From the NCBI GenBank assembly GCA_039586365.1, contig JBDHKN010000035.1, positions 8,124 through 72,123 on the forward strand: 64,000 nucleotides of DNA. Reading direction: 5' to 3'. Position numbers and translations under genes: made by a program. The stretch's first letter is position 1. Every line of letters begins with the position of its first letter. A model generated the notes under the pieces. That model was not told the origin of the DNA. It saw nothing but the letters and a program-made list of their open reading frames with translations, and ran no database searches. Below, piece after piece: positions 47,886 through 59,838 of the stretch. The DNA is from Gemmatimonadota bacterium (GTDB lineage Bacteria > Gemmatimonadota > Gemmatimonadetes > Gemmatimonadales > GWC2-71-9).

Positions 47886-47920
47886 GATTGTTGGCCGGTC
47901 GATCCTGCGGCCAACAAATT

Positions 47921-47994
47921 GGGTGGTTAGCTCAGTTGGTTAGAGCGCCGGTCTCACATACCGGAGGTCGGCGGTTCGAATCCGCCACCGCCCA
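47921..47994 (+). tRNA. tRNA-Val(CAC)
   Basis: Acceptor stem GGGTGGT/ACCGCCC, D-arm AGCTCAGTTGGTTAGAGC, anticodon arm CCGGT-CTCACAT-ACCGG, T-loop TTCGAAT; CCA not encoded. Confidence 0.97.
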
Positions 47995-48005
47995 TTGAAC
48001 AAAGC

Positions 48006-48539: not shown

Positions 48540-49121
48540 GGCTCACACTCACGCTTGGTCGTTATGAAAACTGCGCTGCGGTCCGGCTGGCCACAATGGC
48601 GGCACCTTGCTTTGGATTGCCGCCAGGTGTTGCGTCAGAGACACGGCTCGTCGTAAGCCAATAATTTCAAACGACATGCGGCGCACATTGCACACCCAAC
48701 ACTGACTTGACCCTGCAACAGGACGAGCGGTTGGGGTCTGCCACAATCAATATTGGTGTGCGTCATCTGCACCGTGCGCCCTGCCCACAGACTCGACGAA
48801 CGCTCGCAGGGTGGTCCTGCTCAATCACACCCCTTCAGTCAGCAGGAAGGCACTGAGGCGGGCCACCTCGTGGGATCCGTTTCGCCACGACGCGTTCACA
48901 CTCAGGTGACCTCGACGCCGAACAAGCGATAGACGAAACATACGCTACGCAAGAGTACCTGGCCCGCTTCATGCAAACCGTCCAGTACCATCGAAATCCT
49001 GCCCGGATGCCGTCCGGGATGTTGCGTTGAAGAAAGGCCGGTTAAGCCAGTGTCCACCAGAGGCGTGAAGACACCGCGCTCGCGAGTCGCAGCGCGCGTG
49101 CAGCCCAACACCCCCCCCACC

Positions 49122-50324
49122 ATGCCTGAATTCACTACCCAGGGCCTGTCGGGAGACAGAGTCCCCTTGGCATATCGAATACCTGGCGTCGATCCCAGGT
49201 CGTTAGGCCCGTCTGAATCCAGGATAGAGAACGTGGAGTCGGCCCTTCCGAGATTGCTGGCGGTATTCCAACGCTGCCTCGAAGTGGCCGATGTCGACGG
49301 CGTGGTCGACGTTTGCCTCGAAGAACTGCGACTGAATACTCATCAGTTCAGTGCCGCCGCTATGCTGATGGCCCTGTACCGCAATCTGCTCAAAGAGGAC
49401 GACGTAGAAGGATACCTCGTGACGACTGCCCTGTTCGCGCGGCTGCAGGATCCCAAGCTCGCAGAGCTGGCGGCAAGGGACTTCCTCATCGAGACAGCGC
49501 GGCGGTATGCCAACCACACATCGCATCTTTTCCCCGTCCTCCACAAGCACGCGTCGGCCGCTTTGACGATGTGCAAGTTGGCAAACCGCAGCAGAATCCG
49601 GCTCTTTCTGCGGGACGCCCTTGTCTTTTGGCCATCCCTGCTCGCATTGCGACCAAGAGTCTTCGAGATACCGCTGGATTTTCTGGTGTTCACCCGCCCT
49701 CTCAAGGACAACGGACGCAGCCCATTGGTATTCTCGGACGACGGCTCTGGCGTTCTGAAGCGCAGTGCCCAGCACTGCGTGCCCCGCACCCTGGTACTCG
49801 ATGTGGGCCTGTATGGGACTCTGGTCAAAGAGCTCGACGGGAAAGGATTTTTCGCGGGCGACGGCTCCGTGTTGTTCCTGGGAAGCCGGAATCCGCACAT
49901 ACCGGGATTTCTCAACGAGCTGAGGTTGCGCGAGGCGCCCGCTGAAGTGGTTGTTCAACAGCAAGATGTGGTCAGATACGTAGACACGGTCGAGTGCCTG
50001 CTCAAACCGTTCCTGTTACTACCATCCCTCGATGGGAACATGGTCTTCTTGGAGCTGGGTGACGGTATTTCCTTTGTCTGCTCGGTGGTATTTCTTTGGA
50101 GTTTGTATCGCTACTCCCTAAGTGCGGACAAGTTCGATAGTCCTCACTCTGCGGCAGACCTGCTGTCGCCCGCCGCTGCTCTGGAGAAGCGGTGGCTACT
50201 AGGCGAGCCGATTCCCGCTTGGACCAAGGCAAAGGACTTCGTCGCGAATTGGTCCGCGCATGACCTGAAATCTGCCGCCGAAACTCGGGAATGGCTCGAC
50301 CGCTGGAAGAGGAACGACCCATAG
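49122..50324 (+). CDS. Hypothetical protein with a PRTase-like motif set
   Basis: 400-aa ORF; RLFLRDA, LVLDVGLYGTL, VDTVECLLKP; overlaps the next gene. Confidence 0.7.
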   Translation: MPEFTTQGLSGDRVPLAYRIPGVDPRSLGPSESRIENVESALPRLLAVFQRCLEVADVDGVVDVCLEELRLNTHQFSAAAMLMALYRNLLKEDDVEGYLVTTALFARLQDPKLAELAARDFLIETARRYANHTSHLFPVLHKHASAALTMCKLANRSRIRLFLRDALVFWPSLLALRPRVFEIPLDFLVFTRPLKDNGRSPLVFSDDGSGVLKRSAQHCVPRTLVLDVGLYGTLVKELDGKGFFAGDGSVLFLGSRNPHIPGFLNELRLREAPAEVVVQQQDVVRYVDTVECLLKPFLLLPSLDGNMVFLELGDGISFVCSVVFLWSLYRYSLSADKFDSPHSAADLLSPAAALEKRWLLGEPIPAWTKAKDFVANWSAHDLKSAAETREWLDRWKRNDP

Positions 50325-51085
50325 AACTCAACCACGCCATAGCCGACGCAAACAGGAACGGCCGTCTCGGGCTGGTTCTCTACACCATTCCGGGCTTTCC
50401 GACTGCCCCGGATTATCTGGCCACGCTCGACTTGCTGAACAAGAGCGCCGCAGTGTCGATTGTCGAGATGACCATTCCCGTCGCCACAGGCTTCTCGGAC
50501 CATGCCAACGAGACAATTCGGCGTGCCCACATTCAGGCCGTCAAAGAGACGGAGTCGCGGGACATTCCTAGACCCGGCAAACCGGCTCTATGCGTCCTGT
50601 ACAAGTCCACGTCCGATACCCGTGGGTTTGAATCTGTTCTGGTCGATACTCTCGGTCAGTTTGAGGGACTCATTCTCGAGTGGGCAGAAGAAGATGAATC
50701 CTCATATGTTGCGATCGCTCGCAAACACGGACTGGAGCTGGTGCAGTGCGTCGGCCCATGGATGAGCCCCGATACTATCCAGCGAGTGGTGGAACGAACC
50801 GAGGAAGAGCCTTTAATCTATCTTATGTCAGCACCCATGACCGGTGCGCAGCTGTTCTCCAACCAGGAGCTCGACAGTTGCATTCTAGCGGCGAAGAAGC
50901 ACAGGCCGAAAGCAAAGGTGGCGGCAGGATTCGGAATCGGTAACGGCCAAGACGTGCGGCGCTTGGCCGAGATAGACGCCTTGGACGCGGTCATTATTGG
51001 TACAGCTTTTCTCCAAGCCATGGGCGCCGGGCCGGAGGCAACCATGAAGCTGCTCGCAGACGTCGAACCGGCCTTGGAACGCTAG
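50291..51085 (+). CDS. Divergent tryptophan synthase alpha-like TIM barrel
   Basis: YTIPGFP, IVEMTIP, IYLMS..MTG, AAGFGI, DAVIIGTAF; canonical PFSDPxADGP loop replaced. Confidence 0.85.
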   Translation: MARPLEEERPIELNHAIADANRNGRLGLVLYTIPGFPTAPDYLATLDLLNKSAAVSIVEMTIPVATGFSDHANETIRRAHIQAVKETESRDIPRPGKPALCVLYKSTSDTRGFESVLVDTLGQFEGLILEWAEEDESSYVAIARKHGLELVQCVGPWMSPDTIQRVVERTEEEPLIYLMSAPMTGAQLFSNQELDSCILAAKKHRPKAKVAAGFGIGNGQDVRRLAEIDALDAVIIGTAFLQAMGAGPEATMKLLADVEPALER

Positions 51086-51102
51086 CAACAGCTCACGCGA
51101 CT

Positions 51103-51804
51103 ATGTGGGACCAATCATCAGGCCGGACTCGGATAAAGCTATGCGAGTTCGAATGCCTCGACCCAGCCTACGAAGCCAGCCAGATGGGTGTCGACGCGCT
51201 CGGTTTTCACATCTTCCAACACCAGGACGCGCTCGAAAAGGCAGCGCGGTTCGCTGAAGTTTTTCGCTACCTTCCTGCTGCGGTAACCAAGGTCCTGCTG
51301 ACCGACCTGGAGCTGGACTTCCTAGTTGGAGACGTTCTGCCGCTACTCAGATGTGATGCGATTCAGCTGTACCCAGACTGGTCCGCCGAACAAATCGCAC
51401 GGCTGCGAGATGCATCTCCTTCCGAGCTGAGAATACTCAAGGTCATGTCGGCTAACACTGATGAGAACAAGTTCGGGAATGACGACGAGTTCCTCCACTA
51501 CTACGACAAAGTCGTGGATGCTTATCTACTCGATAGCCATCGAATTGGCGGGACGGGTCGCGTAGCCGACTGGCAGCATTGCGGGGATATTGTCACCAAG
51601 ACCTCACTGCCCGTCTTCTTAGCCGGTGGTCTCACCGCAGAGAACGTCGCCGAGGCCATTCAGGTCGTGCGCCCCTACGGTGTGGATGTGGAGAATGGAG
51701 TAAGTGATCGCATTCCTGACGGACCTCTGGTGAAGAACATGGCGAAGTGCCGCGAGTTCGTCGCCGCGGTACGTAGCGCAGATCGAGAGTCGGGAAGAGT
51801 CTGA
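51103..51804 (+). CDS. Divergent phosphoribosylanthranilate isomerase-like protein
   Basis: RIKLC, DALGF, DAIQL, YLLDS..GGTG..DW, FLAGGLTAENV, PYGVDV. Confidence 0.88.
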   Translation: MWDQSSGRTRIKLCEFECLDPAYEASQMGVDALGFHIFQHQDALEKAARFAEVFRYLPAAVTKVLLTDLELDFLVGDVLPLLRCDAIQLYPDWSAEQIARLRDASPSELRILKVMSANTDENKFGNDDEFLHYYDKVVDAYLLDSHRIGGTGRVADWQHCGDIVTKTSLPVFLAGGLTAENVAEAIQVVRPYGVDVENGVSDRIPDGPLVKNMAKCREFVAAVRSADRESGRV

Positions 51805-51860: not shown

Positions 51861-53003
51861 CTAGCGGAATGGTGCCGGGAGCCACCGACTGGCCCACCGG
51901 GCCAACGGGGTGGCGAACGAGGCCTTTTCCTTAACCGTGGGCTTCACTGTGTGCTCCAGCAGTCGACAGAAGCGGCACTTCGGCAGCCGGGAGGAGAAGA
52001 TGCACATGCTCGCGTGCTGCCGTGCCCCGGTGGCCATCTCGTTCTTCCAACGAGCCGAATCTCCCAAGAAGTCCAGCAGCCGATATCCCTGCGTAAAGCC
52101 ATCCTCGACGATATGCCCGAACAGAACCGCACCCGGCGAAAGTTGGCGATACCCCTGTCGGTACGAGGTCTTCAGGGCGTAGAGCTGACCGTCGAAGATC
52201 ACGCCGAACACGTGTGCGATCGACCGCGAGTCGAGTTGGAGCAGGTAGATGCGCAGCCATCCGCTGCGGGCACAGCGCAGCGCCAGGTCACGGAAGAAGG
52301 TCTCGAGCCCGGACTCGGTCGTAAGGGAGGTGTGCTCGCCCTCCTTCCAACTGTCGCGCTCGATTGAGAACACCTCATCCATGGCAGCGTCCACTTCCTC
52401 AGGGACCGAAACCACCCTCCACTCGGCACGACCGGCCTGTATCATGGCCTTACGTTTGCGGCGCAGTTCGCTCCGGAAGTGGCGCGACCGGCTGGATAGA
52501 TACGACTGCCAATCTTTCTCGAATTCCAGAATGGGAGCTTCCGTGTCGGGTTTCGTCGTTGTGAGCATGTGGTGGTGTGCGGCCACCTCCGGCACCACTC
52601 GCAGCGTAGCCGCATCCTCAAGCACTCGCTTCAAACCAACCTTCACGGGCTGACCCCGCTGACGCAGATACCCGAGCGCGGCATCGATTATCTCATCCGG
52701 CTCGCCCTCGCAGACGATGTCTTCTCGTCGCGTCTGAGGATTGACCGGCAACGTGAGGGTCTTGGGACACCACAACTCTCCGGCAATGTCTTGGATCAAG
52801 GGAATCAGGCCAACCAGCCGCTCGGCGCGCCACACAAACAGAAACGCGATTGGTTTTCCGCGCCAGAACGCGTTGAGCCAGGAAATCAACCATTCATAGC
52901 TGCCAAAGAGGTCCCGGTTGGAAGACCGGCTCAACAGACTCTCCCATGCCTCACGGTAGTCCGCGAGTAAGTCTATGTCGTTGATCTCTTCAACGCGCAA
53001 CAC
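51861..53003 (-). CDS. GNAT family protein (CelD/BcsL, Acetyltransf_6 type)
   Basis: AGGAG RBS and GTG 53003; WQSYL.SRSRHFR, SWK, LSPGAVL, DFLGD...WK. Confidence 0.88.
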   Translation of the reverse strand: MLRVEEINDIDLLADYREAWESLLSRSSNRDLFGSYEWLISWLNAFWRGKPIAFLFVWRAERLVGLIPLIQDIAGELWCPKTLTLPVNPQTRREDIVCEGEPDEIIDAALGYLRQRGQPVKVGLKRVLEDAATLRVVPEVAAHHHMLTTTKPDTEAPILEFEKDWQSYLSSRSRHFRSELRRKRKAMIQAGRAEWRVVSVPEEVDAAMDEVFSIERDSWKEGEHTSLTTESGLETFFRDLALRCARSGWLRIYLLQLDSRSIAHVFGVIFDGQLYALKTSYRQGYRQLSPGAVLFGHIVEDGFTQGYRLLDFLGDSARWKNEMATGARQHASMCIFSSRLPKCRFCRLLEHTVKPTVKEKASFATPLARWASRWLPAPFR

Positions 53004-53040
53004 GCCTGCACTCCTAGCCGATTCAGTGCCACTCAAGCCA

Positions 53041-53625
53041 CTACTCCACAACCCTGCGCAGCCACCCCTCTTTCCAAAAGAGAAAGCAGGTGCGATCGCA
53101 GCCCGCCCAATCGCAGTCGATGTGTCTGGGTGGCTCACAGAACACCTCGTCGAGCAGCACGACGTTCTTGACCTTGACCATGCGCCAGCTGCGCTCGTCG
53201 AAAAAGCGGACCGCCCGCTTTCGAACGGTGTACGTTTGCCCACAGTACCGATCCATCAGGGCCGGGATGTACGCTAGCCCCTCGAACTTGCCCTCTTGGT
53301 CCAGCGTCGCGCCGATCTCTTCAACCGATTTGACTTGAACTCTGTCACCCGGCTCGAGCCCGAGGACGTCAGGTTGGGTTCGCGTCCCCCCCGAAGGATC
53401 CGGCTTAGCGCGCCTGGCTTGGATACGCTCCAGTGCCCGCCTCGGAAGCAGGCTCGGCGTCCTGACGAGTTTCCAGAGACGCAATCCTTGCAGCATCAGT
53501 ATCCGCTTCAGCCGCTCGGCGTGCACTTCCGCCGCGGACGGTGGATCCCCTGCGGCGGTCAGGACCTCAAGCTGACAGATCCTATCGACCGGCTCCCGGT
53601 TGTCATTCAAAATCACTGCGATCAT
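53041..53625 (-). CDS. Conserved hypothetical protein, SH3-like with a Cys cluster
   Basis: LEPGDRVQVKS.EEI.ATLD..GK..GL...M..YCG...C...CDRTCFLFWKEGWL. Confidence 0.75.
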   Translation of the reverse strand: MIAVILNDNREPVDRICQLEVLTAAGDPPSAAEVHAERLKRILMLQGLRLWKLVRTPSLLPRRALERIQARRAKPDPSGGTRTQPDVLGLEPGDRVQVKSVEEIGATLDQEGKFEGLAYIPALMDRYCGQTYTVRKRAVRFFDERSWRMVKVKNVVLLDEVFCEPPRHIDCDWAGCDRTCFLFWKEGWLRRVVE

Positions 53626-59195: not shown

Positions 59196-59489
59196 ATGAT
59201 AAGGTCCTTCGCGGACTTGGCAACTGAGGATCTTTTCAACGGCGTTTCCAGTCGACGGGCTCGCCAGGCTTGCCCTGTCGAACTGTGGCCTGTCGTACGG
59301 CGCAAATTGACTCAGTTGAACCGCGTTCAAGGACTCAGCGAACTCAAAGTACCGCCTGGGAATCGCCTACAACGGTTGCGCGGCGACCGGGTGGGACAGT
59401 ACAGCATTCGGATAAACGATCAGTACCGGATCTGCTTCCGATGGGAGGATAGCTATGCCGACGATGTCGAAGTCACGGACTACCACTAA
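59196..59489 (+). CDS. higB: HigB (RelE/ParE family) toxin
   Basis: MIRSFAD..TEDLF, PPGNRL..L.GDR.GQYSIRINDQYRICFRW...DYH. Confidence 0.95.
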   Translation: MIRSFADLATEDLFNGVSSRRARQACPVELWPVVRRKLTQLNRVQGLSELKVPPGNRLQRLRGDRVGQYSIRINDQYRICFRWEDSYADDVEVTDYH

Positions 59490-59838
59490 GAAGCGTTCAG
59501 GCGGTCTGACCGTACAGCGTCGCCTTCCGACCCACAGGCCACCTACTCACCCGGGCGAGATGTTGCTCGAGGAGTTTCTCAAGCCTCTTGGAATTTCACA
59601 ATCTGCCTTCGCTCGACAACTGGAGGTGTCCTTTCCTCGGCTGAACGAGATCATAAATGGCAAGCGGAGTGTGACCACGGACACGGCTTTGCGCCTGGCG
59701 AGAGTGACAGGCATGAGCGCAGAATTCTGGCTTGGTCTGCAGCAAGACTGGGACCTCTGGCATGCCCTCCGATCTGAAGAGGCCGACGAGATTGCGAAGC
59801 TTGAACCTCTTGCTGGAATGAGGGACGTTACGCGCTAA
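59455..59838 (+). CDS. higA: HigA antitoxin
   Basis: PTHPGEMLLEEFLKP, HTH, TALRLA, FWLGLQ. Confidence 0.95.
   Translation: MPTMSKSRTTTKKRSGGLTVQRRLPTHRPPTHPGEMLLEEFLKPLGISQSAFARQLEVSFPRLNEIINGKRSVTTDTALRLARVTGMSAEFWLGLQQDWDLWHALRSEEADEIAKLEPLAGMRDVTR

Follow-up and report, generated by a model that had tools for sequence, protein, structure and literature searches.

A three-gene unit of a glycan phosphoribosyltransferase relative with TrpA- and TrpF-like barrels in Gemmatimonadota, and a possible route to nitrogen heterocycles

The locus

In a 64,000-nucleotide stretch of DNA from a Gemmatimonadota bacterium (assembly GCA_039586365.1, contig JBDHKN010000035.1, positions 8,124 to 72,123; hereafter the window, part of contig C59 of the host genome, G000), three adjacent genes encode a protein of an unnamed family, a relative of the tryptophan synthase alpha subunit (TrpA-like) and a relative of the phosphoribosylanthranilate (PRA) isomerase TrpF (TrpF-like). 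This triplet is a real, conserved and apparently undescribed unit that may build a small nitrogen heterocycle from phosphoribosyl pyrophosphate (PRPP) and an amine. The features of the locus, in window positions, are as follows.

Gene 1: 49122..50324, + strand; 400 aa from ATG; predicted PRPP-dependent ribose-5-phosphate transferase of an unnamed family, stand-alone
Gene 2: 50291..51085, + strand; 264 aa; (beta/alpha)8 barrel in a TrpA-like subfamily of its own; retro-aldolase predicted to act alone
Gene 3: 51103..51804, + strand; 233 aa; TrpF-like barrel in a clade of its own; putative Amadori isomerase
tRNA-Val(CAC): 47920..47995, + strand; called by ARAGORN; 1.1 kb upstream of the triplet, context only

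An earlier reading of the window, made from its letters alone (the sequence-only reading), described three co-oriented genes downstream of a tRNA-Val with no other trp genes in the window, and this arrangement is confirmed. The open reading frames of genes 1 and 2 overlap by 34 nt and a 17-nt gap separates genes 2 and 3; tblastn with the host trpB, trpC and trpD matches contig C126 only, and trpE lies on C12. An alternative GTG start at 49050, upstream of the ATG, would extend gene 1 to 424 aa. All three genes are under purifying selection, with dN/dS values for genes 1, 2 and 3 of 0.095, 0.073 and 0.126 against locus L009 and 0.138, 0.158 and 0.111 against locus L006. Degenerate pseudogenes are ruled out by these values (0.07-0.16).

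The same reading placed the triplet in a genomic island, for which the case is weak. The close relative L010 likewise has a tRNA at the corresponding position. In the host assembly neither end of the tRNA-Val recurs (over 14 nt or more), so that no attachment-site repeat is seen, and the G+C content is 0.57-0.58 against 0.60 for the genome; a tRNA-anchored island was rejected on these grounds. An Rfam scan of 11 loci (for the window itself, the stretch from position 48842 on) returned nothing but a tRNA, and a promoter and terminator scan gave chance-level results (2 against 1.3 and 5 against 3.5). In one sediment metatranscriptome, genes 2 and 3 are covered by three short contigs (depth ∼3) and gene 1 by none; as DNA carry-over is possible, these contigs are no evidence on expression either way.

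Conservation and distribution of the unit

Patterns built on gene 1 retrieved four genome loci and nine metagenome loci, of which 12 are distinct, L015 being a repeat of L008. Three of these (L010, L014 and L016) stop in or just past gene 1, leaving nine informative loci. The order seen in the window, gene 1 followed by the TrpA-like and the TrpF-like gene, is present in eight of the nine (L006, L007, L008, L009, L011, L012, L013 and L017), so that the triplet is conserved elsewhere. The number of independent cases is smaller than eight, because L011 is nearly the same as L012, and L007 has neighbours in common with L013. By titled records, the triplet occurs in three phyla: Gemmatimonadota, Nitrospirota and Myxococcota.

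The unit is rare and mobile. Within the host genus, gene 1 is found in two of eight genomes, and the unit occupies three different loci, with one copy decayed. Its flanks elsewhere comprise sugar transport genes (L006), a polysaccharide cluster (L007), a one-module non-ribosomal peptide synthetase (NRPS; L008), chaperones (L011) and a GNAT gene (L017). The NRPS gene (C-A-T-TE; L008:4164-8036) is on the same strand as the triplet and begins 46 nt past the TrpF-like gene, in this locus only. Strong gene-1 matches in genome samples were limited to G000 among 401 genomes of its own phylum, G404 and G747 of 401, G403 of 251 and G747 of 251; misses are possible in these samples because only 4-7 candidates per genome were scored. 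The TrpA-like subfamily was found in 0/201 and 0/121 myxobacterial genomes, in overlapping sets that lack a positive control. Plasmids gave no match for gene 2 or for the gene 1' of G747 described below, phages gave none for gene 1, and viral contigs gave none with alignments A3 or A5.

A variant unit in the myxobacterial genome G747 (L087:1504-4362, on G747:C23) consists of a remote gene 1', a prenyltransferase alpha-alpha toroid gene and a TrpA-like' gene. Gene 1' is not matched to gene 1 by tblastn (E 1e-5), yet scores 264 bits against the gene-1 family profile. The TrpA-like' protein carries both indels of the TrpA-like subfamily (the loop-2 insertion and the loop-6 deletion) and has Ala at the position of Asp60. 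The G+C content of this unit is 0.57-0.61 versus 0.67 in its flanks. The variant implies that the link between gene 1 and the TrpA-like gene is deep and that the third partner is exchangeable. Indirect support for the linkage comes from cluster records: 8 of 28 non-self close gene-1 clusters list a longest contig of the same size as that of a TrpA-like cluster, as do 2 of the 20 distant gene-1 clusters looked up.

Gene 1 and the glycan phosphoribosyltransferases

The gene-1 family comprises 29 close members and, clustered at 50% identity, 123 representatives. Neither Pfam nor NCBIfam has a match for gene 1; among 93 aligned members, no family of either database is common to more than one, no phosphoribosyltransferase (PRTase) model of either matches any member at E 0.1, and PHROGs matches 0/93. 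A PDB sequence search with the gene-1 profile gave nothing at E 0.001, with weak helical matches only (E at least 0.03). The best ESM Atlas values were 0.86, for TPR fragments, and 0.89, for clusters that are unnamed and in part viral; both fall below the lead level of 0.9.

A relationship emerged through 27 long proteins in which the gene-1 profile weakly matches an RD motif, 24 of them with a motif of the F-x-x-R-[DE]-G type. An alignment of 13 of these proteins (A4), which join a HAD phosphatase to a glycan phosphoribosyltransferase (gPRT) domain, matches the ribofuranosyltransferase gPRT-PRP (PDB 7SHG) at E 6e-76 and Bcs3 CriT-CrpP (PDB 8A0C) at E 1e-55. Alignment of the gene-1 profile with A4 by hhalign gave a probability of 96.7% and an E-value of 4.2e-10 over 145 columns, versus 0.1-0.5% for unrelated and reversed controls. 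Because A4 was picked through the first motif, the remainder of the gene-1 alignment was tested alone. Without the picking motif the match has an E-value of 5.5e-4 and a probability of 30%, and it keeps the DxGxxGT loop as well as E291 in register. HAD-gPRT ribofuranosyltransferase-like genes with weak gene-1-profile matches (L062-L085) occur in 24 of 401 sampled Myxococcota genomes.

The FLRD and LVLDVGLYGT motifs noted by the sequence-only reading are present, and their key residues are near-invariant across the 93 members: R164 in 89, D165 in 93, R192 in 90, D227 in 91, G232 in 93, T/S233 in 91 and E291 in 93. The PRPP site of CriT consists of S678/R679/D680, S707/R708 and E818-T825, and E874 is its proposed base (PMC10299916). 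The counterparts of R679/D680, R708, E818 and T825 are kept in gene 1 (R164, D165, R192, D227 and T/S233). E291 aligns with a conserved Glu of the gPRT alignment and is likely the counterpart of CriT E874. Gene 1 thus shares with gPRT and CriT profile homology over both PRPP motifs, a downstream conserved Glu and a split acidic pair (RD ... DxGxxGT), in which the PRPP loop has a single Asp and the second acid comes from the RD motif. By profile it is a relative of gPRT/CriT, and it is predicted to transfer ribose-5-phosphate from PRPP. The earlier assignment to a PRTase-like fold is upheld at the level of profile relationship, while its resemblance to a classical type I enzyme with a vicinal acidic pair is not: the type is that of CriT/gPRT.

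Gene 1 differs from these enzymes in being stand-alone. The helical insert between the motifs, which surrounds the active site of CriT, is absent (the alignment with A4 has a long gap there), no HAD phosphatase is fused to gene 1 or adjacent to it in the loci read, and its partners are TrpF and TrpA barrels, not glycosyltransferases. Given the missing insert and the missing phosphatase partner, the product of gene 1 would keep the 5-phosphate that both barrels need.

Two barrels outside the canonical tryptophan groups

The TrpA-like protein of gene 2 matches Pfam PF00290 with 56.5 bits and TIGR00262 with 44.6 bits, below the equivalog cut-off of 102, compared with 225.6 for the canonical TrpA of the host. 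Its relatives bear the public name 'tryptophan synthase subunit alpha'. The subfamily consists of 55 proteins of 39-100% identity, 53 of which were aligned. As the sequence-only reading held, the protein keeps the equivalents of Glu49 (E59, 53/53), Tyr175 (Y177, 53/53) and Thr183 (T184, 52/53) together with the phosphate site, in which G213-F214-G215 and G237 are present in 53/53 and G185 in the window protein. The subfamily has conserved residues of its own (S69, H71, N73, H80 and W131), a loop 2 longer by two residues and a loop 6 shorter by one. The positions of Asp56 and Pro57, which we take to be contact residues for the beta subunit, are variable or Gly, and no trpB was seen beside any triplet read. 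FastTree analysis of the TrpA rows was unrooted and did not place the G747 protein.

The TrpF-like protein of gene 3 matches Pfam PF00697 with 62.3 bits. Residues were numbered through an alignment with 1LBM, and the comparison set held 14 rows, two of which (L035 and L036, the TrpC halves of fusions) were dropped from residue counts, leaving 12 canonical TrpF. The catalytic residues reported by the sequence-only reading, C14 (Cys7) and D144 (Asp126), are kept in 10/10 TrpF-like proteins, and the GGTG and LAGGL motifs are present. The substrate side of the barrel has changed. The Arg36 position is A or V in 10/10 (R in 12/12 canonical TrpF), the Glu184 position is S in 10/10 (E in 12/12), and the His83 position, presumably around the anthranilate site, is Y in 10/10 (H in 10/12). 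The DVSSGVE motif has become DVE[NST]GVS in 10/10, accompanied by many further clade-specific invariants. Arg36, through its salt bridge with Glu184, is tied to shielding of the anthranilate carboxylate, with little direct contact to the substrate (PMC9088769). Loss of this pair with the acid-base pair kept would count in favour of a non-anthranilate acceptor. In the TrpF tree, the 10 triplet rows form one side of a branch with a support of 95/100 and a length of 3.5, apart from canonical TrpF. Both barrels lie outside the canonical groups, in agreement with their earlier description as divergent.

Relation to tryptophan synthesis

The host genome has a separate set of canonical trp genes, with trpD, trpC, trpB and trpA on C126 and trpE on C12, and no canonical trpF. 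The genomes G401 and G403, in which triplet genes are present, also hold canonical trpF and trpA. A displaced trp operon was rejected as an explanation because of these separate genes in the host, G401 and G403. The triplet is very probably a dedicated module that serves something other than tryptophan synthesis. In the canonical cluster of the host (L004:4990-12765), trpD and trpC are separated by a lexA-like gene of opposite strand, and trpB and trpA by two genes, one of them HD-GYP-like; G402 and G408 have this layout too.

Whether the triplet barrels are the sole trpA and trpF of the genome has a divided answer. The TrpA-like gene is not the sole trpA. For TrpF, a profile search with filters off found no family member in G000 besides the TrpF-like gene, which is also alone of its family in the single-contig G402; both genomes have trpE, trpD, trpC, trpB and trpA, with trpC abutting trpB. 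Relatives in which no triplet was found also lack a detectable trpF, however: in G407, G408 and G411 (69-94% complete) neither was found, canonical trpA and trpE are present, and trpC abuts trpB in the stretches read. The missing trpF thus seems to be lineage-wide. The canonical trpA of G407 (G407:C252; L049, L052) is split over two frames by a frameshift or an assembly error. In G747, a second stand-alone TrpF paralog (G747:C34; L098:1456-2163) follows a peptidase-like gene, and a canonical trpF lies on C12.

The gap in the lineage may be filled by another barrel. A HisA-like gene in the host (G000:C58:63011-63724; L102:1498-2211) follows ftsZ and a peptidase-like gene; it has the same immediate neighbours in G402 and G408, and an ortholog is carried by G407, G408, G411, G000 and G402/G410. 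HisD and HisB were not found over the cut-off in 5/5 of these genomes, and G000, G402 and G408 each have one strong HisA/HisF-family match. Among 23 genomes of the host family, 13 have the HisA-like ortholog (at least 43% identity) without a non-triplet TrpF over the cut-off, four have TrpF only, one has both and five have neither; G417 was left out of this count, and the TrpF matches of G412 and G023 enter it unread. The exclusion is not universal, since four genomes of the neighbouring family carry both a 37-41% HisA-like homolog and TrpF. HisA-family proteins with TrpF activity are known (PMC9088769, PMC13055916), which makes the HisA-like gene the likelier housekeeping isomerase. The lone HisA-like gene likely fills the trpF gap, as a predicted TrpF stand-in outside Actinomycetota.

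A proposed pathway and its alternatives

The sequence-only reading proposed a repurposed mini-pathway of phosphoribosyl transfer, Amadori isomerisation and aldol cleavage. The part that stands is a conserved, non-housekeeping unit of PRTase-like, TrpF-like and TrpA-like genes; the scheme itself skips ring closure. Cleavage of the TrpA type needs a ring-borne glycerol phosphate, so that ring closure must fall between the TrpF-like and TrpA-like steps, and with no trpC beside any triplet read, a self-closing Amadori product is the simplest route. We infer four steps, their order and the class of acceptor as follows. Gene 1 would move ribose-5-phosphate from PRPP onto an amine; the TrpF-like enzyme would convert the N-ribotide to a 1-amino-1-deoxyribulose 5-phosphate by an Amadori rearrangement; ring closure on the C2 ketone would follow without TrpC, the acceptor being electron-rich or ortho-diamino; and the stand-alone TrpA-like enzyme would release glyceraldehyde 3-phosphate and the free heterocycle by a retro-aldol reaction. 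In net terms, C1-C2 of ribose would be added to the acceptor as a new ring, by the logic of indole synthesis with another entry enzyme and another substrate. A TrpF from Chlamydia provides a parallel in converting a ribosylamino-pyrimidinone to dihydroneopterin phosphate, an Amadori rearrangement plus ring closure without TrpC (PMC4161248). That the triplet builds a small nitrogen heterocycle in this way is given a probability of about 0.45.

Several observations weigh against this pathway. The main weakness is that the characterised homologs of gene 1 all make O-glycosides on glycans (PMC10299916, PMC11294581), while the Amadori step needs an N-glycoside. The Asp60 position of the TrpA-like subfamily, Asp in the window protein (D70), is D in 23/53, E in 17/53 and A, S, P or N in 13/53; it is acidic in 40/53 and non-acidic in 13 in spite of being essential in TrpA, where replacement of D60 by Asn, Ala or Tyr abolishes activity (PMC12930369). 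At least some members of the subfamily are hence unlikely to cleave indole-3-glycerol phosphate by the usual mechanism. The unit is also not obligatory. At L005, gene 1 is joined directly to the TrpF-like gene, and the TrpA-like gene is absent from the locus and was not found in that genome. A second copy in G402 (L054:8915-9946) retains the 3' part of a broken gene 1 next to an intact TrpA-like gene and has no TrpF-like gene, and a triplet-type TrpF was not found in the G747 genome. The TrpF-like proteins have Glu in place of Ser in the DVSSG motif, which we take to be part of the phosphate site. The flanking genes are not conserved and suggest no acceptor. In a set of 10 gene-1/TrpA-like pairs, divergence was not significantly matched (rho 0.36, p 0.10); seven of the pairs were put together solely by equal contig size, the exceptions being those of the window, of G402 and of the L007 type. 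The downstream neighbour of the second G402 copy resembles that of the copy in G405.

Other functions can be envisaged for the same genes. Gene 1 could take the place of TrpD without being homologous to it, using anthranilate or an aniline as acceptor, with isomerisation by the TrpF-like enzyme, ring closure by the housekeeping TrpC and release of a (substituted) indole by the TrpA-like enzyme in the manner of maize BX1. TrpC is present in G000, G402 and G747, the invariant Glu49 and the mostly acidic Asp60 position fit such a cleavage, indole-3-glycerol phosphate synthase turns over a carboxylate-free substrate, albeit ∼1000-fold more slowly (PMC7681013), and BX1 is a precedent for a stand-alone TrpA (PMC12930369). 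This indole route is nevertheless unlikely, for trpC stands beside no triplet read and was not found in the triplet-bearing G404 (a fragmented assembly), Arg36, His83 and Glu184 are replaced in 10/10 TrpF-like proteins, the TrpA-like pocket has the new conserved residues H71, N73, H80 and W131, and the host already has TrpD. An O-ribosylating unit is likewise improbable: gene 1 would act as CriT does on a hydroxyl of a sugar, glycan or phenol, and the barrels would be an accessory isomerase and aldolase that tailor or salvage the ribose phosphate, with no heterocycle formed. The characterised homologs are O-ribofuranosyltransferases, invariant E291 may correspond to the CriT base, L007 lies within a polysaccharide gene cluster and L013 has the same immediate neighbours, and either barrel can be absent (L005, G747 and the second G402 copy). 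Set against these points are the missing HAD phosphatase and helical insert, the lack of a polysaccharide cluster in the available sequence of six of eight intact related loci and the retention of the Amadori Cys and Asp in 10/10.

That the TrpF-like protein is simply the PRA isomerase missing from the lineage, with the remaining genes as passengers, is very unlikely. The reading draws on the position of this gene as the only TrpF-family member in two genomes with otherwise complete trp sets, G000 and G402, and on the Chlamydia TrpF, a repurposed enzyme that keeps PRA activity (PMC4161248). Three relatives (G407, G408 and G411) have trp genes with neither trpF nor triplet found, however; the HisA-like ortholog occurs in these three as well as in G000 and G402/G410, with HisD and HisB undetected; and a canonical trpF accompanies the triplet gene set in the G401 and G403 genomes. 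Least probable is the role in defence raised by the sequence-only reading, in which a tRNA-anchored island would hold an anti-phage system producing or degrading a nucleotide-like molecule. The unit is patchy and mobile, with gene 1 found in two of eight genus genomes, the unit at three different loci within the genus and the G747 variant lower in G+C than its flanks. PADLOC, however, gave no match for the three triplet proteins, matching only the HTH and GNAT proteins among 16 scanned; the assembly has no attachment-site repeat; and the neighbourhoods read elsewhere are those of chaperones, sugar transport, polysaccharide genes, an NRPS and a GNAT protein.

The heterocycle pathway can be extended to the whole gene-1 family. 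In this doubtful extension, gene 1 would represent a new N-ribosylating class derived from the glycan-ribofuranosyltransferase fold and the hub of small mobile cassettes (at least 123 clusters at 50% identity), in which swappable TrpF-like, TrpA-like and prenyltransferase-fold partners would yield new heterocycles by indole chemistry free of TrpD and TrpC.

Comparison with known systems

The tryptophan route TrpD-TrpF-TrpC-TrpA resembles the triplet in a predicted phosphoribosyl transfer followed by TrpF- and TrpA-family barrels with their main catalytic residues. The triplet differs in an entry enzyme without a TrpD-model match, in the lack of trpC and trpB alongside and in barrels that lie outside the canonical groups, have changed substrate-side residues and coexist with canonical trp genes. 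Maize BX1 and other indole-3-glycerol phosphate lyases are, like gene 2, TrpA paralogs without TrpB that keep Glu49. BX1 keeps Asp60, in contrast with the variable position, altered loops 2 and 6 and linked upstream transferase and isomerase of the TrpA-like subfamily. The Chlamydia TrpF, which works with RibA in folate synthesis, likewise handles a non-anthranilate N-ribotide, followed by ring closure and a three-carbon phosphate side chain; its substrate arises from GTP ring opening and not from a PRTase, it keeps PRA activity, and it has no TrpA-like partner (PMC4161248). PriA/AdeK in nucleoside antibiotic clusters is a duplicated phosphoribosyl isomerase recruited together with phosphoribosyltransferase (HisG) homologs (PMC13055916). 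These are HisA/HisG families in large actinomycete clusters, in contrast with TrpF/TrpA barrels and a gPRT-type enzyme in a set of three genes.

Neighbouring genes in the window

An Acetyltransf_6 GNAT gene and a gene for a 194-aa protein (51861-53625, - strand) converge on the triplet and are not adjacent to it in the other loci read. A small helix-turn-helix (HTH) protein is encoded at 59455-59838 on the + strand and has weak PADLOC matches only. It presumably resembles a HigA-type antitoxin.

Significance

No description of this three-gene unit was found in full-text listings, whose coverage leaves out most subscription journals. Enzymes of the trp and his pathways are already known to have been recruited into specialised metabolism; a stand-alone gPRT-type transferase combined with TrpF-like and TrpA-like enzymes in the absence of TrpD, TrpC and TrpB was not found described. 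The proposed pathway gives a testable function to a protein family without a Pfam entry, and suggests that the recently described fold of glycan phosphoribosyltransferases would also serve small-molecule chemistry. The three genes would make up a route to a metabolite, with barrels that annotation treats as ordinary trp enzymes. For studies of substrate change in these model barrels, a bacterial TrpA variant acting alone and a TrpF whose pocket has been rebuilt would be natural cases. The TrpA-like subfamily is present in named myxobacteria (Sorangium sp. So ce1014 and Archangium violaceum), so that culture may give access to the product.

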